Positions 9,431 to 21,019 of a DNA stretch of 64,000 nucleotides are shown here, piece by piece; the stretch's first letter is position 1; each line of letters opens with the position of its first letter. The stretch spans positions 513 to 64,512 of the forward strand of contig JAGWVB010000002.1 of assembly GCA_018971105.1 (NCBI GenBank), written 5' to 3'. The position numbers and the translations under genes are program-made. A model generated the notes under the pieces. It ran no database searches. It had not been told where the DNA came from and worked only from the letters and a program-made list of their open reading frames with translations. The stretch is from Burkholderiales bacterium (lineage in GTDB: Bacteria > Pseudomonadota > Gammaproteobacteria > Burkholderiales > Burkholderiaceae_C).

Positions 9431-11569
9431 CTACAGATTCCCCGCGAACAGCCTGCCGATGAAGAGATCCTTGAAACTGTTCGCTTCGTCGATGCCGAGC
9501 CGTTCCAGATAGGCCCGCGGCGCCTCGCGTCCCTCCCAGAGGCTGCGCAGTGCCAGCGTCACGAGTTCGACCGGATGATGGCCAGCCTGCTGCAATCGTT
9601 TGAGGGCAGCGACAATATGCTGCTCGTCAGCGTTGAGGTCGGTACCGAAGGGATAAGGCGGCAGCCAACCGGCATCGATTCCAGGCTGCAGCCGCGCGCG
9701 CAAGGAGGCGGGCGTGTTGGGCCAGCGCTGCGGCGGCAGTTCCCAGCCCGGCTCGAGCTTGCCGGCGGCGCGCGCACGCGTGATCAGTTCCTCCTGGAAG
9801 CGCGCGTCGGCGACCGCGATCAGGCGCTTGACGACCTCGCCGTCGGTGTGCCCGCGCAGGTCGGCGACGCCGTATTCGGTGACGACGAGGTCGCGCAGGT
9901 GGCGCGGTATGGTCTCGTTGCCGCCGCCGTCCCAGACGATGTTGCTGGCCGGTCCGTCCGGGCCCTCGCGCGTCGAGCGCAGCATCAGGATGGAGCGCGC
10001 GTCGGGCAGCGCATGGGCCATCGCGACGAAGTTGTACTGGCCGCCGACGCCCGAGACGACGCCGCCGTCGGCCAGCGTGTCCGAGATCGCCGCGCCCAGC
10101 AGCGTGACCTTCATCGTCGTGTTGATGAAGCGGGCCTTGACGCGCTGCGCGCGCCTGAGCGCGCTGTCGCGCTGCGCCGCACCGTCGAGCTGGTTGACGA
10201 AATCGATGCGCGTCATCTCGACGCGCGAGCGCTCGCCTGCGGCCAGGCCGCGCAGGCGCTCGTAGAAGGCCTGCGGGCCGATGAAGAAGCCGGCCGTGAG
10301 CACGACGCCGCCGGCCAGGCGCGGCCCGAGCAGGGTCGGGCCGATGGCGGCCAGCACCTCGGGGTCGCGCAGGTCGTTGGGCAGTTGCATGCCGTCGGGG
10401 GCGACGAGGCAGTCCTCGCTCAGGCGCACGCCGCGCTGGAACACGCCGTGGCGGATCAGGTACGCGACATCGTCGGCCGTCAGCGGCGAGCGGATGCGGC
10501 CGGCCTGCAGCAGCGCCTGCAGCGTCGCCGCGCTGACCGCCGCCGGTGCGATGTCGCCGCGGTTGATCAGCTGCTGCAGCACGAGGTCGCCGTAGACCTC
10601 GCGCCGCACGATGCCGGCGTCGATCAGCTCGAGCAGGCCGGCGCCGAACATCTCCGAGCAGCCATAGAGGCCGCGGTAGAAGCGTCCGAGCTCGCGGCCC
10701 TGCGCGCCTCCCGGGCTGAGCCCGTCGACGAGCCGGCGGAAGCCGGCGTTCTCGCGTTCGCGCAGGATGAGCGAGCGCGCCACGGCGTCGCCGAGCGAGC
10801 CGATGCCGATCTGCAGCGTGCCGCCGTCGGCGACGAGACTGGCCGCCTGCAGGCCGATCGCGTAATCGGCGTCGGCGACCTCGGTGTTGGGCGGCCCGAA
10901 AAGCCGGTGCGTGCCCTCGGGCGCGTCGACGACGAGGTCGTAGAACATCGGCGCGACCTCGGCGCCGCCGCCCATATAGGGTAGTTCTCGGTTCACGACC
11001 GCGACCTTGTACAGCGGGGCGCCGGCGGCGGCGCAGCGCTCGGCGATCTCGAACGAGAGATCCGGGTTGCTCGACATCGACAGCCGCCAGCGCCCGCCCG
11101 CGCGCGTCTCGGCCACCGCCTGTGCGATCGCATTCACGCCCTGCAGCACCATGTCGCGGGCGACGAAGGTGTAGTTGGAGGCGATGAACGAGCGCTGCGC
11201 CGCGTCGTGGCCGAGATAGGCGCCGGAGCGGAAGAAGAACTCGCGCACCTCGATGTTCGGCGGCAGGCCGGCGCCGCGCGCATCGGCGAGATAGTCGAGC
11301 TCGGGATAGTCGCCGAACAGGCGCTCGACCAGCGGCTCGAGGAAATGGCGCTCGAGCTCGCTGCGGCCCTGCGGCCGCTCGAGCGACAGCGCGGTGACGA
11401 TGACGAGGCGGCGCTCGGGCCGCGCGCGGATGCGGCGGTAGAGCGCGTTGACGAAGCGGTTGGGCTTGCCGATGCCCAGCGGGAGCCCGAGCACGATGGT
11501 GCCGGGCACGGCCGCCAGCAAGCCATCGACCGCGGCTTCCATCGAATCGACGACGCGCGGCTGGGCCAT
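9431..11569 (-). CDS. Acetyl-CoA hydrolase/transferase family protein (long form)
   Basis: [46 protein letters not shown]; start at MAQPR. Confidence 0.85.
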
Positions 11570-11693
11570 GCTGATCTTTCCTCGGATAGGTGCCCGAGTC
11601 TGCGCCCTGCGCGGCGTTCCTGCACGCCGCGCCCGCAATGGCCTGCGGTCCCGCTAGGCCAAAAGCGGGAAGACAGCTTGCTGTGCTAGGCGG

Positions 11694-13949
11694 CTAGAAG
11701 ATGGCCTTGAACTGCAGACCGTAGGTGCGCGGATCGTTGATGAAGCCGGTCAGGTTGTTGAAGTCGATCGCGCCGGTGACCCGGATCTGGTTCGTCAAGT
11801 TGCGCACGTAGAGCGCGAGATCGTACTTGCCGTTGTTCCAGTCGTAGCCGGCGCGCAGCCCGCCCTCGGTCAGCGGCTTGCCGGTGAACTCGATCGAGCG
11901 GTAGAGGAAGAAGTCGACGCTGCTGCGGTAGGTCCAGTCGGTGTAGACGTAGAACTCGTTGCCGCCGCCGGTCGGGATCGCGTAGCGGGCGTTGAGGTTG
12001 CCGGTCCAGCGCGGCGCGTTCGGCAGCTGGTTGCCGTTCACGTAGACCTCGCCGCCGCCGCCGGGGACGGCCGGGCTGGTCACCTTGCAGCCGCCGCCGC
12101 AGCCGGCCACGGTCAGGTTCGGGTCGTGGATCCTGGCGTCGTTGAGGCTGGTGCTGAGCGAGAGCGTCAGATTGTCCAGCGGCAGCAGGTCCAGGCTGAG
12201 CTCGAAGCCCTGACCGATGACCTTGTTCGCGCTCTTGACGGTATTGCTGTTGCCGCCGCCGCCGACCTCGGTGAGCTGGAGGTGGTTGACGTCGTAGCGG
12301 TAGACGGCCGCCGAGAGCCGGCCGCGGCGTTGCCAGAATTCGCTCTTGATGCCGGCCTCGTACGAGGTGATCGTCTCGGGGCCGGCCTGGCTGAGCGGGC
12401 CGAACTCGCCTGCCGGCAGCGTCGTCGACGCGCGGAAGCCGGTGCCGATGCGCGCATAGACGTTGATGTCGGGCGCGATCGCGTACAGCGCCGAGAGATC
12501 CCAGGTCGTCTTCGTGTCGCTGGTGTCGGCGGCGACGCCGTTGCTCGTGTCCAGCACCTGGCCGCCCACCGCCGGCACATAGCTGTAGAGCTGCTTCTTG
12601 TCACGCGTGTAGCGCAGCCCCGCGCCGACCTTGAAGCGTTCGGTGACCTGGTACTTGGCCTCGCCGAACAGCGCCCAGGCCTGGTTCGCCTGATGCGTCT
12701 CCGAGTACACCGGCACCCCGGTGCCATAGGGCGGCGCGTTCGAATAGTCGATGTTCTCCCAGGTGTAGCGCTCGTCGAAGGCGTAGAGGCCGGCCTGCCA
12801 GCTCAGCGGCCCCGGCTGGCGCGACTCGAGCCTGAACTCCTGCGTCAGCTGGCGATGGCCATGCAGCGCGTCCGAGGTCTCGTCGGGGAACAGCGCGACA
12901 TTGAGCGCGCCGGTCGGGTAGGCGTAGATGCTGCCGCCGTCGACATCGCCGCGGCTGAAGGGTCGCACGGTCTCGATCGCGGTGATCGAGTGCAGGTCGG
13001 CGCCCGCCAGCGACCACTTCAGCCGGGCATTGGCACCGGTGGAGGTCACATGCTGGGCGTTGACGCCGTCGATCGACATGCGGTCGGGGTTGAAGCCGGC
13101 GATCAGGTTGTTGGTGCCGGGCTGGATGATGCCGGCGCGGAACAGCCGCGGGCTGCCGTTGAGGTCGCGGTGGTGGATGTTGAACAGCGCGCTGAAGGCC
13201 TGCGACGGCTGGTACAGCGCCTGCAGGCGCACGGCGAGATCCTCGTAGCCCTCGGTGGCCGGGGTCTGCCCGGCGGGGTCGGTGTTGTGGACCCAGTCCT
13301 TGCGGTGCTGGTCCTGGGCCGAGATGCGCATCGCCCAGTCCGGCCCGAGGGCGATGTTGCCGGCCCCTTCGGCGTTGATCGTCCCCAGGTTGCCGAAGCC
13401 GAGGCTGAAGTAGGCGTCGCGCTTGTGCGACGGCGCGACCGAATCGAACTTGACCACGCCGGCCGGCGTGTTGCGGCCGAACAGCGTGCCCTGGGGTCCG
13501 GCCAGCACCTCGACGCTCTGGACGTCGAAGACCGGGAATCCCTTGAGGATCGGGTTTTCCTGGACCACGTCGTCGTAGACCAGCGATACCGGCTGCGAGG
13601 CGTTGAGGTGGAAGTCGGTGTTGCCGTAGCCGCGCAGGTAGAAGCGCGGGAAGGCGCGTCCGAACGACGACTCGATGTTCAGGCTCGGCACGCGGCCGGC
13701 GAGGTCGCGCACGTCCTGGCCGCCGGCGCTCAGCGCGTCCATCAGGTCGCCGCTGACGACGCTGATCGAGCCCGGCACGTCCTGGATGTTCTCGACCCGG
13801 CGCTCGGCCGTGACGGTGATGGTCTGGAGCTGGGTCGGCGCCGTCTGGGCCGCGGCGCCCAGCTGCAGCGAGGCCAGCGCGGCGGCGGCGAGCACTGGGC
13901 GAACCGGCAGCGCCGGCCGCGGCTGACTTGGGGAACGAGACATGACCAT
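11694..13949 (-). CDS. TonB-dependent outer-membrane receptor
   Basis: Signal peptide, TonB-box-like LQTITVTA, plug motif GPQGTLFGRNTPAGVV, C-terminal PRTYGLQFKAIF. Confidence 0.95.
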   Translation of the reverse strand: MVMSRSPSQPRPALPVRPVLAAAALASLQLGAAAQTAPTQLQTITVTAERRVENIQDVPGSISVVSGDLMDALSAGGQDVRDLAGRVPSLNIESSFGRAFPRFYLRGYGNTDFHLNASQPVSLVYDDVVQENPILKGFPVFDVQSVEVLAGPQGTLFGRNTPAGVVKFDSVAPSHKRDAYFSLGFGNLGTINAEGAGNIALGPDWAMRISAQDQHRKDWVHNTDPAGQTPATEGYEDLAVRLQALYQPSQAFSALFNIHHRDLNGSPRLFRAGIIQPGTNNLIAGFNPDRMSIDGVNAQHVTSTGANARLKWSLAGADLHSITAIETVRPFSRGDVDGGSIYAYPTGALNVALFPDETSDALHGHRQLTQEFRLESRQPGPLSWQAGLYAFDERYTWENIDYSNAPPYGTGVPVYSETHQANQAWALFGEAKYQVTERFKVGAGLRYTRDKKQLYSYVPAVGGQVLDTSNGVAADTSDTKTTWDLSALYAIAPDINVYARIGTGFRASTTLPAGEFGPLSQAGPETITSYEAGIKSEFWQRRGRLSAAVYRYDVNHLQLTEVGGGGNSNTVKSANKVIGQGFELSLDLLPLDNLTLSLSTSLNDARIHDPNLTVAGCGGGCKVTSPAVPGGGGEVYVNGNQLPNAPRWTGNLNARYAIPTGGGNEFYVYTDWTYRSSVDFFLYRSIEFTGKPLTEGGLRAGYDWNNGKYDLALYVRNLTNQIRVTGAIDFNNLTGFINDPRTYGLQFKAIF

Positions 13950-14083
13950 GGCGACTCCTGGAAGGGTTAAGTCCTTGTGACTTCCATGATGCCGTCAAGG
14001 CCGCGCGGATGGCTTCGAGCCCCGAGAAACGTCATGCGAGTGACGCATGGGCGCAACATTCGAGGGGTAGATCGAACGAAACA

Positions 14084-14112
14084 CGCCCGAAGGCCGACAC
14101 GGCCTTCGGGCG
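14084..14112 (-). terminator. Rho-independent terminator of the small peptide gene
   Basis: Perfect 12-bp stem CGCCCGAAGGCC / GGCCTTCGGGCG with 5-nt loop, followed on the minus strand by TGTTTCGTTC, 26 nt after the peptide stop. Confidence 0.75.
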
Positions 14113-14138
14113 CGGCAAGCGCAGGTCGAGTTAAGAAA

Positions 14139-14291
14139 TCACTCGAGGTAGACCGTCTGAGTGGGCCTGACGGTCGCCTTTTCCAGATAGACCGTTTGCC
14201 CACCCGAAACCTGGCGCAGCTGCTCCAGGCTCAATTCCGGAATGGTCTTCTGGGTCTCGGTAGGTTGTGCAATCTGCTTCGAGTTCGTCAT
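14139..14291 (-). CDS. 50-aa double-glycine-leader precursor peptide (bacteriocin/RiPP-like): MTNSKQIAQPTETQKTIPELSLEQLRQVSGG-QTVYLEKATVRPTQTVYLE
   Basis: Hand translation; AGGAG RBS 7 nt before ATG; leader ELSLEQLRQVSGG; the two QTVYLE copies differ only at synonymous positions; own terminator; below the ORF-track size cutoff. Confidence 0.85.
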   Translation of the reverse strand: MTNSKQIAQPTETQKTIPELSLEQLRQVSGGQTVYLEKATVRPTQTVYLE

Positions 14292-14298
14292 TCAATAA

Positions 14299-14303
14299 CT
14301 CCT
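14299..14303 (-). promoter_or_regulatory. Shine-Dalgarno site of the peptide gene
   Basis: AGGAG on the minus strand, 7-nt spacer to ATG at 14291. Confidence 0.75.
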
Positions 14304-14485: not shown

Positions 14486-15739
14486 ATGGATCATGTGCCC
14501 GGCCGCAGCCATATCCGCTTGACTTCGCATCCGGGCCAGGGCCCGTCGGGCGCGCCGCCCCTGCACTGGGGCGCGAGCGATCCGCTGCCGCGCGGCCCGG
14601 TCGTCGGCACCACCGCCGACCGCGGCCAACGCAATGTCATCGGCACGCACAGCGGCAGCTACGGCGTCTATCGTGCACTCGCGGTGGCGGCCGGCAACCT
14701 CGGCCGCGGGCACCGCGCCGACCTCACCGACACCGCACCCACCGACCTCGTCGGGCCCTACCCGCAATGGGGCGATGCGGCCCGCATCGTCGCCATCGAC
14801 CCCTGGGGCGCCAGCGTGCAGCAGGTCTACGCCGGGTACCTCGCCGCCGGCTACGACATCCGGCCGACGATCGCCGTCACCAAGGCCCATGTCCACCTGC
14901 CCGAGATCCGCCAGGCGATCGCCTTCCAGCGCCTGGCCATCGACGGCCGCATCCTGCTCGAGGACGCCAGCGCCGCCGTCACCAAGGTCGCGATCGAGCC
15001 GGTCTGGTGGCTGCCCGGGGTCGCCGCGCGCTTCGGCGTCGGCGAGGCCGAGCTGCGCCGCGCGCTGTTCGAGGAAACCGGCGGCATGTACCCCGAACTC
15101 GTCACGCGCAGCGACCTCGAGGTGTTCCTGCCGCCGATCGGCGGCCAGACCCTCTATGTCTTCGGTGACATCCGCGACCTCGCCCGCCCCGAGGTGACGC
15201 TGACCGCGCGCGTGCACGACGAGTGCAACGGCTCGGATGTCTTCGGCAGCGACATCTGCACCTGCCGCCCTTACCTCACGCATGCGATCGAGGAATGCAT
15301 CCGCGGCGCCCAGGCGGGCGGCGTCGGCCTCATCGCCTACAGCCGCAAGGAGGGCCGGGCGCTGGGCGAGGTCACCAAGTTCCTCGTCTACAACGCGCGC
15401 AAGCGCCAGCCCGGCGGCGACCGCGCCGACAAGTACTTCATGCGCACCGAATGCGTCGCCGGCGTGCAGGACATGCGTTTCCAGGAACTGATGCCCGACG
15501 TGCTGCACTGGCTCGGCATCCGCAGGATCCACCGCCTCGTGAGCATGAGCAACGACAAGTACGACGCCATCGTCGGCAGCGGCATCGAGGTCGGCGAGCG
15601 CGTCAAGATCCCCGACGCCCTGGTGCCCGCCGACGCCCGCGTCGAGATCGAGGCCAAGATCGCCGCCGGCTACTTCACCGACCGCAGCGTTCCCCGCGCC
15701 TCCGATCTCGCACGGGTCCAGGGACGCGCCCTTGAGTGA
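14486..15739 (+). CDS. GTP cyclohydrolase II-like protein with N-terminal extension (URC1/Urg1 type)
   Basis: RNVIGTHSGSYGVYRALAVA N-domain; RVHDECNGSDVFGSDICTCRPYL, RKEGRALGEVTKFLVYNARK. Confidence 0.9.
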   Translation: MDHVPGRSHIRLTSHPGQGPSGAPPLHWGASDPLPRGPVVGTTADRGQRNVIGTHSGSYGVYRALAVAAGNLGRGHRADLTDTAPTDLVGPYPQWGDAARIVAIDPWGASVQQVYAGYLAAGYDIRPTIAVTKAHVHLPEIRQAIAFQRLAIDGRILLEDASAAVTKVAIEPVWWLPGVAARFGVGEAELRRALFEETGGMYPELVTRSDLEVFLPPIGGQTLYVFGDIRDLARPEVTLTARVHDECNGSDVFGSDICTCRPYLTHAIEECIRGAQAGGVGLIAYSRKEGRALGEVTKFLVYNARKRQPGGDRADKYFMRTECVAGVQDMRFQELMPDVLHWLGIRRIHRLVSMSNDKYDAIVGSGIEVGERVKIPDALVPADARVEIEAKIAAGYFTDRSVPRASDLARVQGRALE

Positions 15740-16970
15740 AGCCGCCATCCATGTCCTGCGCGGGCTGCACGACCCGGCGACGATACGCAGGCGCTGCCGC
15801 GCCATCCTCGCCGCCGTCGATGACGGCGTGAGCCCGCATTTCAGGATCGATCGCAGCGGCCTGCCGGCGCTCGCCGACCGCGTCGCGGCGCTGACGCGCA
15901 GCCGCTACCCCGACCTCGCGGTGCCGCTGCACAGCCGCTGGCGCCATTTCGAGGCCGGCGGCATCGACCGGCCGCGCCAGCTCGACGCCCTGCTCGCCGG
16001 CCGCAGCGCCGCCGAGGCCGCGCGCGCGCGCTTCGACCTGACCCTGGTCAGCGTGCTGCTCGACGCCGGCGCCGGCCCCGCCTGGTCCTATGCCGAGCCC
16101 GGCAGCGGCCTCACGCTCGCGCGCTCCGAGGGCCTGGGGGTGGCGAGCTGGCATGGCTTCCTCGGCGGGCGCTTTTCGGCCGACCCGGCCGACCCGCTGC
16201 GCGCCGATGCGGCGCGGCTGGAGGTGATCGGCCCCGGCGCCTTGCGCGAACTGTTCCAGGCCGGCGGCGCGAATCCGCTCGTCGGGCTCGACGGGCGTGC
16301 CGGCCTGCTCGCGCGGCTGGGCACGGTGCTGCGCGGCGAAGCCGGCAGCGTCACCGCGCGCCCGGCGCTGATCTACGACCGCCTCACCGACGGCGGCCTG
16401 CGCACCGAGGTCAGCGCCGCCGACCTGCTGGGCGAGCTGCTGCGCACGCTGGCGCCGATCTGGGGCGGCGGCAGCCGCATCCGCGGCCTGCCGGCCGGCG
16501 ATGTCTGGCCGCACCGCTGGGCGGGCGCGGCCACCGGCGGCGGCGAGGACGGCGGCACCGGCGGCTACGTGCCCTTCCACAAGCTGAGCCAATGGATAGC
16601 CTACTCGCTGGTCGAGCCGCTGCAGCGCAGCGGCGTTCGGGTGCGCGGCATCGAGGCCCTCACGGCGCTGCCCGAATACCGCAACGGCGGCCTGCTGATC
16701 GACGGCGGCGTCGTCGTGCCGCGCGCCGCCCACGCGCTCCAGCGCCCCTGGCGGCCGGGCGACGAGTTCGTCGTCGAATGGCGCGCGCTGACGGTGGCGC
16801 TGCTCGACGAGCTCGCGCCGCTGGTGCGCGAGCGACTCGACGCCCCGGACCTGCCGCTGGCCTGCATCCTCGAAGGCGGCACCTGGGCCGCCGGGCGCGA
16901 GATCGCGCGCGAGCGGCGCCGCGACGGCGCGCCGCCGCTGAAGATCGAATCCGACGGCACCCTGTTCTGA
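15732..16970 (+). CDS. URC4/Urg3 family (DUF1688) protein
   Basis: HSRWRHFEAGG, VSVLLDAGAG, RSEGL, FHKLSQW, LPEYRNGGLL, VEWRALTV, LEGGTW; overlaps upstream gene. Confidence 0.88.
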   Translation: MSEAAIHVLRGLHDPATIRRRCRAILAAVDDGVSPHFRIDRSGLPALADRVAALTRSRYPDLAVPLHSRWRHFEAGGIDRPRQLDALLAGRSAAEAARARFDLTLVSVLLDAGAGPAWSYAEPGSGLTLARSEGLGVASWHGFLGGRFSADPADPLRADAARLEVIGPGALRELFQAGGANPLVGLDGRAGLLARLGTVLRGEAGSVTARPALIYDRLTDGGLRTEVSAADLLGELLRTLAPIWGGGSRIRGLPAGDVWPHRWAGAATGGGEDGGTGGYVPFHKLSQWIAYSLVEPLQRSGVRVRGIEALTALPEYRNGGLLIDGGVVVPRAAHALQRPWRPGDEFVVEWRALTVALLDELAPLVRERLDAPDLPLACILEGGTWAAGREIARERRRDGAPPLKIESDGTLF

Positions 16971-17005
16971 ACCGGCGGCCGAAAGCCTAACGTCGAAAGC
17001 GAGCG

Positions 17006-17641
17006 ATGAGCGCAGCCGAAGTCCACGTCATCACCCACCCGCTGGTCCAGCACAAGCTGACGCTGATGCGGCAGAAGGACCTCAGCACGGCCAGCTTCAG
17101 GCGCCTGCTGCACGAGATCGCGATGCTCATGGCCTACGAGGTCACGCGCGAGATGCCGACGCAGCTGATCGAGATCGAGACCCCGCTCGAGACGATGCGC
17201 TCGCCGGTGATCGAGGGCCGCAAGACCGTCTTCGTCGTCATCATGCGCGCCGGCAGCGGCTTGCTCGACGGCATGCTCGAGATCGTGCCCGGCGCGCGCG
17301 TCGGCCATGTCGGCCTCTACCGCGACCCGAAGACGCTGGTCGCGATCGAGTACTACTTCAAGATGCCGCAGGACATGGCCGAACGCGACGCCATCGTGCT
17401 CGACCCGATGCTGGCCACCGGCAACTCGGCCGTCGCCGCGGTGGAACGGCTGAAGGAGACGCGGCCGCGCTCGATCCGCTTCGTCTGCCTGCTCGCCGCG
17501 CCCGAGGGGCTGCGCAACTTCCACGCCCATCACCCCGGCGTGCCGGTCTACGCGGCCGCCGTCGACCGCGAACTCGACGGCCACGGCTACATCCGGCCCG
17601 GGCTGGGCGACGCCGGCGACCGGCTCTTCGGCACCAAGTGA
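17006..17641 (+). CDS. upp: Uracil phosphoribosyltransferase
   Basis: [44 protein letters not shown]. Confidence 0.97.
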
Positions 17642-19138: not shown

Positions 19139-21019
19139 ATGAGGAACCCGCGCATGCCGCTGCTGGCGGCCCTGTTCTGGCTGCTGCTGGGGCTGCCGGT
19201 GCAGGCCGCGACGCTGCACGTCGACGCGGCGCTGAGCGCCCCCGGCGACGTCGGCTCGACCGCATTCCCGACCGATGCCCCGGCGCGCGAGGTGCCGCTG
19301 CCCGACGAGTGGCGCAACAGCCGCCCGGGCTACGCCGGCACGCTGTGGTACCGCGTCGAGTTCGACGACGATGCCGCCGCGCTCGCCCCCGACGACCTGA
19401 TGGCGGTCTACATCCCGCATGTCTGCGCCAACCTGGAGGTCTACCTCAACGGCGAATTGCTGCACAGCGGCGGCCGCATGAACGCACCGATAGACGACCA
19501 CTGCAACGCGCCCCAGCTCGTCACGCTGCCGACGGCCCTGCTGCGCGGGCGGGCGAACCGGCTCGACATCAAGGTCGCCGGCCACGCGCTGGCCCAGGTC
19601 GGCGCGCGCCAGCGCGCCGGCGCGCTCTCGGCGCTCGAGATCGGGCCGCAGTCGGAACTGGCGCCGCGCCGGGCGCGGCTGGCGGCGATCCAGGTCGACG
19701 CGCCGCAGGCGATGAGCGCGACGCTGCTGCTGATGGGCGGCTTCATGTTCGTGCTCGGCTTCATCAACCGCAGCGAGAGCCATCTGGCCTATTTCGGCGC
19801 GCTCTCGGTGGGCTGGGCACTGATCGATGCGCGCGGCTGGCTGCGCGTGCTGCCGCTGCGCCCGCTCGGCCACTCGGAGGCCGAGTTCCTGAACTGCGCC
19901 GTGCTCGGCTTCGCGACCTGGGCCGCCGTGCAGTTCCTGCTGCGCTACGGCCGCGGACGCTGGCGCGTGGCCGACCTCGGCCTGCCGCTGCAATGCGCGC
20001 TGCTGGCGTTGAGCCTGATGCTCGGCGGCCCGCAGCGCATGCACCGCATCGCCAGCCTGTGGTACCTGGTGTTCGGCGCCGAACTCGCGGCCGCCGCCGT
20101 CTGGCATCTGCAGCGCCAGCGCGGCACGCGCCAGTTCTGGCTCATGGCAGCGATGCTCGGCGCGGCGGCGCTGGCCGGCGCGGTCGAGGCCGCCGTGCAA
20201 TGGGCCGGCTTGCCGCAGATCGCGGCCGGCCTGGCGCAGCTGCTGGTGCCGCTGGTGCTCGCGCTCGTCGGCCTGCGCCTCGTGCAGCAGCATGGGCGGG
20301 CCCTGCAGCAACACGGCCGCGCGCTGCAGCAGGCCGAGATCGGCAAGGCCGAGCTCGAGCTGCGCGTGCGCGAGGCGACGGCCGAGATCGAGCGCAATTT
20401 CCACCAGCTCGCCGAACTGCGCGTCGAGCAGGTCACCGAACGCGAGCGCAAGCGCATCGCGGCCGACCTCCACGACGACCTCGGCGCCAAGCTGCTGACG
20501 ATCGTCCACACGAGCGACAGCGAGCGCATCAGCACGCTCGCGCGCGAGGCGCTGGAGGAGATGCGGCTGTCGGTGCGCGGGCTCACCGGGCGCCCGGTGC
20601 GCCTGGCCGACGCGCTCGGCGACTGGCGCGCCGAGGTCGTCTCGCGCCTGGCGCAGGCCGGCATCGAGGGCGACTGGGAGGCACCCGAGGACCTGCCGCA
20701 GATGCTCTCGGCGCGCGCCTATGTGCAGACGACGCGCATCCTGCGCGAGGCCACGAGCAACATCATCAAGCACAGCGGCGCCACCCATTGCTCGGTCAGC
20801 GCCGACATCTCGGCCGGCGATTTCCACCTCGCGGTGCAGGACAACGGCGACGGCATCGCGCCCGAGACCGAGGGCCGGCTCGACCGCGGCCACGGCCTGG
20901 CGAGCATGAAGAACCGGGCCAAGCAGTTGCAGGGGCAATGCCTGGTCGAGTCGGGCCGCGGCTATGGAACCGTGATACGCCTCACGCTTCCGCTCGCGCG
21001 CGCGGTCGAAGGCCCCTGA
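19139..21019 (+). CDS. Sensor histidine kinase (periplasmic beta-domain, ~7 TM segments, HisKA_3, HATPase)
   Basis: Signal peptide, hydrophobic block, [15 protein letters not shown]-box, [23 protein letters not shown]. Confidence 0.92.
20285..20326 (+). repeat. Tandem 21-nt (QQHGRAL x2) duplication inside the histidine kinase
   Basis: CAGCAGCATGGGCGGGCCCTG / CAGCAACACGGCCGCGCGCTG: identical peptide, synonymous differences. Confidence 0.85.

Follow-up and report, generated by a model that had tools for sequence, protein, structure and literature searches.

The window analysed here is a stretch of 64,000 nucleotides from the genome of an uncultured freshwater Burkholderiales bacterium. At positions 14139-14291, on the minus strand, it holds a small peptide ORF without earlier annotation, present in a single copy in the genome, whose product can be parsed into a leader, MTNSKQIAQPTETQKTIPELSLEQLRQVSGG, and a core, QTVYLEKATVRPTQTVYLE. 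The features of the locus are these:

14299-14303, minus strand: AGGAG, the ribosome binding site, which lies 7 nt ahead of the ATG and is the same in each of the four aligned loci
14139-14291, minus strand: precursor peptide gene, 50 codons plus TGA, product MTNSKQIAQPTETQKTIPELSLEQLRQVSGGQTVYLEKATVRPTQTVYLE, with the ORF kept in three alleles
14199-14291, minus strand: double-glycine leader, residues 1-31, in which LSLEQLRQVSGG matches L-12 S-11 xx E-8 L-7 xx V-4 x G-2 G-1
14181-14198, minus strand: QTVYLE copy 1 (CAA ACG GTC TAT CTG GAA), core residues 1-6, just after the predicted cleavage site
14160-14180, minus strand: spacer KATVRPT (AAG GCG ACC GTC AGG CCC ACT), core residues 7-13
14142-14159, minus strand: QTVYLE copy 2 (CAG ACG GTC TAC CTC GAG), core residues 14-19
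14020-14216, minus strand: hypervariable segment (core, 3′ UTR and terminator), 42-67% identical to the sister lineage against a background of 91%
14082-14114, minus strand: intrinsic terminator of the peptide gene, a 15-bp stem with 12 G-C pairs and a T-rich tail
11694-13949, minus strand: TonB-dependent receptor gene (Plug and beta-barrel, TonB box LQTITVTAE), co-oriented with the peptide gene and about 190 nt downstream of it

The gene order common to the peptide loci is a URC1-like cyclohydrolase gene pointing away, the peptide, the TonB-dependent receptor, a CoA-transferase-like gene, lipB and lipA. The peptide gene looks real. Its reading frame is intact across three divergent alleles (50 and 52 amino acids), and the terminator recurs at the same place in the other alleles with a different stem sequence; frame, ribosome binding site and terminator have thus been kept despite cores that are about 50% identical and a length difference of two codons. 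A search of the flanks against Rfam returned no riboswitch or known RNA at E <= 1. The idea that the promoter region is more conserved than its surroundings was rejected, as the counted identity of about 90% equals the background. The base composition of the gene (G+C 57%, GC3 76%) lies below that of the genome (G+C 70.8%, or about 71%, and GC3 91%), which is consistent with a gene of recent or foreign origin, or with weak selection on codons.

Leaders of the double-glycine type follow the consensus L-12, S-11, E-8, L-7, I/V-4, G-2, G-1. Every one of these positions is matched in LSLEQLRQVSGG, which is invariant at the protein level in the three alleles, and when the whole genome was scanned for the motif in six frames, the leader of this peptide was the sole match to the full consensus. 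Between lineages, leader residues 17-31 (IPELSLEQLRQVSGG) have undergone three synonymous and no non-synonymous changes, whilst residues 7-16 change freely. The best match among curated profiles was the leader model NF033456 (CCRG-2 family RiPP), at 18.8 bits against a cut-off of 24 bits, with residues 19-31 of the peptide aligned to model positions 5-17 of 18; PF04604 was matched by the homologues only, at 13.5-14.3 bits against a cut-off of 21.7. The likeness to the CCRG-2 family is one of a generic double-glycine leader helix, below the cut-off and with an unrelated core. An AlphaFold2 prediction of the precursor shows a helix at residues 22-28 only and a core without confident structure (mean pLDDT 63).

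The core is built around two copies of the hexapeptide QTVYLE. That the copies differ at four synonymous sites, and that the second forms the C-terminus, had been claimed in an earlier note on this DNA and was confirmed base by base: the differences (CAA/CAG, TAT/TAC, CTG/CTC and GAA/GAG) all fall at third positions, and copy 2 is the exact C-terminus, with the TGA (14139-14141) directly after it. For four random substitutions in 18 bases under neutrality, the probability that all are synonymous is 0.003-0.008 by an analytic calculation (kappa 1-4) and 0.0016-0.0023 by simulation, values below 0.01 that should be read with the caveat that the hexads were picked after the pattern had been seen. 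With that post hoc character in mind, the pattern is beyond chance, and it supports the suggestion of the same note that selection acts on the peptide motif. Copy 1 includes codons that are rare in this genome (CAA, TAT and GAA account for 7%, 18% and 22% of their respective synonyms), and copy 2 is built from the genome's preferred codons. Third positions have changed in four of the six codons, so the copies do not represent a recent DNA duplication, and the two hexads are held at the level of the protein. The hexad pair is most plausibly a repeat internal to this one allele, kept by purifying selection, and may serve as a bivalent or two-strand recognition element.

Homologues are few. Among 5.8 billion clustered proteins there were only two, P0003 with the core QTIFVDTIRILPAPTGITMAE and P0002 with the core MTIWVDTKVAPPTPNGITMAE, both of 21 residues and both with unlike ends. 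A profile search of 1.84 billion representatives added one distant double-glycine-leader peptide, P0009, on a 1.3-kb contig (leader LSLDQLRQVSGG, core NTYFHPNAGNDVCVLTN). Scans of JGI metagenomes with a protein pattern and with the exact leader DNA yielded no additional alleles, nor did a scan of GTDB genomes, which returned the known sister MAG only. Across the protein, JGI metagenome and GTDB scans the gene is therefore restricted to one narrow lineage, and every peptide locus lies in a Burkholderiales MAG or on a related metagenome contig. The known alleles number three, each with a conserved leader and a divergent core.

Comparison of the three cores shows what is held constant. All have Thr at position 2, a beta-branched residue at 3, an aromatic residue (Y/F/W) at 4, an aliphatic one at 5 and an acidic one at 6, together with one Pro in the middle, which lies in the KATVRPT spacer of the present allele, and a C-terminal Glu. 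The N-terminal motif x-T-[VI]-aromatic-[VL]-[DE] is accordingly retained in both homologues. The exact repeat is not conserved, since the C-termini of the homologues read GITMAE. The Tyr of the first motif becomes Phe or Trp and that of the second becomes Met; the first motif keeps its T-x3-[ED] spacing, and in the second the T-x3-E found here is T-x2-E in the homologues, a comparison that extends to three sequences only. The number of repeats is constant across the alleles. The earlier note had looked to homologues for invariant Thr, Tyr and Glu and a variable repeat number; what they keep is the Thr and the C-terminal Glu, without the Tyr or the exact repeat, and at a fixed number. What the homologues carry is at most a loose two-fold resemblance (TIFVD / ITMAE), and three sequences are too few to test so short a pattern. 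On the best reading, the two hexads elaborate a looser pattern common to all alleles, in which a Thr/Ile/Val-rich segment, an aromatic residue or Met, and an acidic end would recur at each terminus around a Pro-containing middle.

The variation between alleles is sharply localised. The window and the sister-lineage locus L019 are 91% identical over 10 kb, and a scan of identity between them in windows of 60 nt identified the core and terminator as the least similar stretch in those 10 kb. A closer comparison is provided by loci L023 (allele P0002) and L019 (allele P0003), which differ at 24 of 1257 positions; 21 of these differences lie inside the 45 nt for core residues 1-15 (binomial P ~1e-27). 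They include synonymous changes as well as replacements of whole codons, which points to old, deeply diverged alleles recombined into near-identical backgrounds and not to recent point mutation. The mature part of this peptide is an allelic hotspot, set against a leader and flanks that are conserved from strain to strain. A constant leader joined to an exchanged mature part is typical of strain-specific extracellular peptides, namely pheromone pherotypes and bacteriocin allele families. A diversity-generating retroelement was considered as the source of the variation and rejected: a short-word blastn search of the whole genome with 14051-14300 found no template repeat, the region itself being the only match, and stretches of as many as 11 adjacent mismatches are not what adenine-specific mutagenesis would be expected to leave.

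A double-glycine leader requires consideration of the export route. The genome contains only one C39 peptidase ABC exporter, on contig C61 (G000 C61:6203-8311; Peptidase_C39, ABC_membrane and ABC_tran domains), with the catalytic-Cys motif QTEAAECGLACL and with an HlyD adaptor gene preceding it (C61:4950-6206). This pair lies on a different contig from the peptide gene and would have to act in trans. The exporter and its own cognate peptide have orthologues in the sister genome that bears allele P0003; the exporter is common in the genus, so the co-occurrence of exporter and peptide is uninformative. As the exporter sits on another contig and has a double-glycine peptide of its own, we can only infer that it is used in trans by the orphan precursor.

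The exporter locus has some features of its own. Locus L058 (G000 C61:3876-8311) runs from a LuxR/SdiA-like autoinducer-binding regulator through a double-glycine peptide to the HlyD adaptor and the C39 ABC exporter. The cognate peptide has 54 residues, with the leader MKSLLNLVRRTQVAQPLKAPQLLPVADLKKVGGG followed by LPRVGGLTGNCTVSPSGVTS, and a 57%-identical orthologue lies beside the orthologous exporter in the sister MAG. That MAG also has, 12 kb from its peptide gene, a cluster (L060, G065 C30:70500-78500) made up of a TPR/glycosyltransferase-like gene, a gene for an ABC transporter whose N-terminal domain matches C39 weakly, and then one for an HlyD adaptor. As the exporter of the peptide studied here this transporter was rejected, having no orthologue in G000 (best match 28% identity).

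Taking these observations together, we consider the gene to encode an orphan precursor with a double-glycine leader, from which cleavage after Gly31 would release a linear 19-mer for export in trans, a reading to which we assign a probability of about 0.58. The precursor would be translated from its own transcription unit. Its leader helix (residues 17-31, IPELSLEQLRQVSGG) would be bound by the C39 domain of the C61 exporter, whose cysteine-peptidase activity would cleave after Gly31, and the core QTVYLEKATVRPTQTVYLE would then leave by way of the ABC transporter, the HlyD adaptor and an outer-membrane channel. The exported peptide, with a computed monoisotopic mass of 2238.19 Da and a pI of 6.3, is near-neutral, and would probably be linear and unmodified except for a possible N-terminal pyroglutamate. 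It would presumably act outside the cell in a strain-specific manner. Between the two roles that suggest themselves we lean somewhat towards a strain-specific signal and away from an antagonistic peptide, because the product is short, non-cationic, free of Cys and without an adjacent immunity gene. An unmodified peptide with a repeated epitope was among the products offered by the earlier note, and is the only one of them to survive the present analysis.

The other products offered there were chemically modified. Such a reading holds that an enzyme from another locus, possibly of an undescribed type, cross-links the T-x3-E units or the Tyr residues through lactones or C-C/C-O bridges. It can draw on the retention in all three alleles of Thr at position 2, the aromatic residue at 4, the acidic residue at 6 and the C-terminal Glu. 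In graspetides, GG motifs occur in roughly half of the precursors, and the C39 peptidase is usually not at the ATP-grasp locus (PMC8939145). The enzyme inventory, drawn from a genome that is 98% complete, nevertheless speaks against it. No match to the MvdD-type ATP-grasp family (PF21068) was found in the genome, and the two RimK-type matches (PF08443) are glutathione synthetase (GshB) and one further gene whose neighbours, from inspection of the ORFs by eye, look like a tetrahydromethanopterin gene cluster. A graspetide was rejected on these grounds. The bicyclic Thr-Glu lactone proposed earlier finds no support either, given the lack of a RiPP ATP-grasp enzyme, the altered Thr-to-Glu spacing of the second unit and the unconserved repeat.

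For the Tyr residues the position is much the same. The single SPASM radical-SAM gene in the genome, on the 4-kb contig C219, lies next to pqqB and a typical pqqA and is thus PqqE; with PqqE assigned to its own PqqA, a radical-SAM cross-link of the triceptide or darobactin-like kind was rejected. The single P450 (contig C191) is found among dehydrogenase-like genes, a metabolic context with no peptide ORF nearby, and the Tyr of the second copy is Met in the homologues, so a P450 cross-link was rejected as well. A Tyr-modified RiPP, also suggested in the earlier note, is hard to maintain when Tyr gives way to Phe, Trp or Met and when the enzymes available are PqqE and a metabolic P450. Precursors of graspetides and of radical-SAM and P450 RiPPs are normally located beside their enzyme, and no enzyme-like or immunity-like gene adjoins the peptide gene at any peptide locus. 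The search for RiPP ATP-grasp, SPASM and P450 enzymes having produced no candidate, and the motif not being kept in the homologues, the case for a macrocycle has largely gone. We regard a modified product as unlikely, although a modifying enzyme of an undescribed type is conceivable.

Beyond the peptide gene, the neighbouring receptor invites attention. In a receptor-coupled role the TonB-dependent receptor would import or sense the exported peptide as a ligand, or the peptide's N-terminal QT[VI]x[VL] would imitate the TonB box (LQTITV) and engage TonB. The two genes are co-oriented and 190 nt apart at every peptide-carrying locus, and the synteny is retained in the peptide-bearing MAGs. The cores begin QTVYL, QTIFV or MTIWV and the TonB box reads QTITV, and one loop of the receptor carries an indel between lineages. 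Against this, the whole neighbourhood is syntenic among close relatives, so that adjacency is of little weight, and a strong terminator separates the genes. The resemblance to the TonB box extends over only 4-5 residues. Across lineages the receptor is 89% identical with the one loop indel, and strains with different cores have the same TonB box and the same first 107 residues, so no co-variation is visible. Related receptors (52-59% identity) are encoded in 19 other species of the genus, always without a peptide gene in front of them, which indicates that the peptide gene is a lineage-specific addition. The nearest pair of a histidine kinase and a NarL-type regulator lies 5 kb from the peptide, behind housekeeping genes; the kinase is ~80% identical across lineages in its N-terminal 200 residues, which we take to be periplasmic, and ~95% identical elsewhere. 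Co-variation with the core was looked for both in the TonB box and in this kinase, and none was demonstrable with so few alleles. A role coupled to the receptor therefore appears improbable.

The restriction of the gene to one narrow lineage, its base composition far below that of the genome and the terminator ahead of the receptor gene would also suit an ORF whose product is not exported at all, either a young and functionless lineage-specific ORF or a small cytoplasmic or regulatory one that affects transcription into the receptor gene. It is difficult to reconcile this with a frame, a ribosome binding site and a terminator function that have been kept across alleles about 50% different in the core and changed in length by two codons, or with a double-glycine leader block and two hexads in which change has been synonymous only. 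The codon runs and alternative hairpins typical of attenuation leaders are also absent. We doubt that this explanation is correct.

A more elaborate proposal would join the peptide and the receptor in a Gram-negative pherotype system, in which a C39-exported hypervariable peptide is recognised or imported by the downstream receptor, with mimicry of the TonB box by QT[VI]-aromatic-[VL]. If it were true, balancing selection on strain-specific recognition would explain the divergent core alleles on near-identical backgrounds. We consider it very unlikely. Least credible of all is the release of two identical QTVYLE hexapeptides from a multi-core precursor, an idea raised in the earlier note on the strength of two identical hexads that do appear to be under purifying selection: the residues preceding them are SGG and RPT, no second GG or shared cleavage motif stands before copy 2, and the homologues have a single 21-residue core with unlike ends and a fixed repeat number. 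The hexads are best read neither as separate cores nor as a recognisable substrate for macrocyclisation or lactone formation.

For the linear exported peptide that we favour, the closest parallels are the unmodified Gram-positive pheromones ComC/CSP, BlpC and plantaricin A. These have a leader of about 30 residues that ends in an LSxxELxxVxGG-type motif and a linear, Cys-free mature peptide of 17-27 residues. As in pherotypes, strains whose DNA is otherwise alike share the leader here but differ sharply in the mature part. There are differences too: the host is a Gram-negative member of the Burkholderiales, no histidine kinase/response regulator pair and no exporter is adjacent to the gene, and the sequence similarity is limited to the leader motif. 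Short linear double-glycine peptides are well understood as pheromones of Firmicutes, and a longer form is represented by the microcins of Enterobacteriaceae; to our knowledge, short linear peptides with such leaders are almost unstudied in Betaproteobacteria. Orphan double-glycine-leader peptides are a known kind, and judged from its sequence this peptide is a further example.

The class II microcins (MccV, MccL and MccN; families in PMC12219008) share with the peptide a double-glycine leader in a Gram-negative host, and the route by a C39 ABC transporter, HlyD and an outer-membrane channel is the one expected here; known members use outer-membrane receptors for uptake. The criteria applied to the class are an adjacent small membrane immunity protein, size and an adjacent exporter (PMC12219008). 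At the present locus, by contrast, the core has 19-21 residues and not several tens, is not Gly/Ser-rich, and lacks an adjacent membrane immunity gene, whilst the exporter lies on another contig. No small membrane immunity ORF was found between the URC1-like and receptor genes, where the intergenic spaces measure 194 and 189 nt. Class II microcins have been described as too long for chemical synthesis (PMC12219008); the peptides considered here, at 19-21 residues, would be cheap to synthesise, and a set of three alleles in which the leader is kept and the core exchanged makes a compact case for study. Plesiocin-type graspetides have in common with the peptide repeated short units with Thr upstream of Glu, and GG motifs are common in their precursors (PMC8939145). 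They differ in that no ATP-grasp ligase is found here, adjacent or genome-wide, and in that repeat and spacing are unconserved in the homologues.

If the variation of the core reflects recognition specificity, then diversification of the pherotype kind would operate in freshwater Gram-negative populations too. There is also a caution here for genome mining of RiPPs, in that a conserved Thr...Glu repeat with purely synonymous divergence looks like a substrate for macrocyclisation, a view that in this case neither the homologues nor the enzymes of the genome bear out.

A number of further observations were made on the genome and around the locus. On contig C219 (G000 C219:2266-3447), pqqA (ending in FGFEITLYVSAR) and pqqB adjoin the only SPASM-domain gene, and with pqqA, pqqB and PqqE present we conclude that the organism makes PQQ. 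In the receptor, the only patch that diverges strongly between the two lineages is a loop at 12898-12975 (minus strand) with a 4-residue indel, GS----IYAYPTG against GSAPYTFFASPTG, and the TonB box LQTITVTAE shares its opening QT[IV]x[VL] pattern with the peptide cores. The receptor gene is followed directly, at 9431-11638 on the minus strand, by a gene for a protein of 735 residues in which a known domain (AcetylCoA_hyd_C) is recognised over residues 454-621 only; the gene always occupies this position in the peptide-bearing lineage and is not found beside the related receptors of the genus. The kinase gene (19139-21019) has, at about 20280-20370 on the plus strand, an in-frame tandem duplication of 7 residues after the last predicted membrane segment, present as a single copy in the sister lineage. 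Finally, a three-gene operon at 14486-17641 on the plus strand, divergent from the peptide gene, encodes a GTP-cyclohydrolase-II-like protein with a long N-terminal domain (NF005536, 762 bits), a DUF1688 protein and a uracil phosphoribosyltransferase (UPRTase, PF14681), a content that matches the URC-type uracil utilisation operon to which these genes had earlier been assigned.
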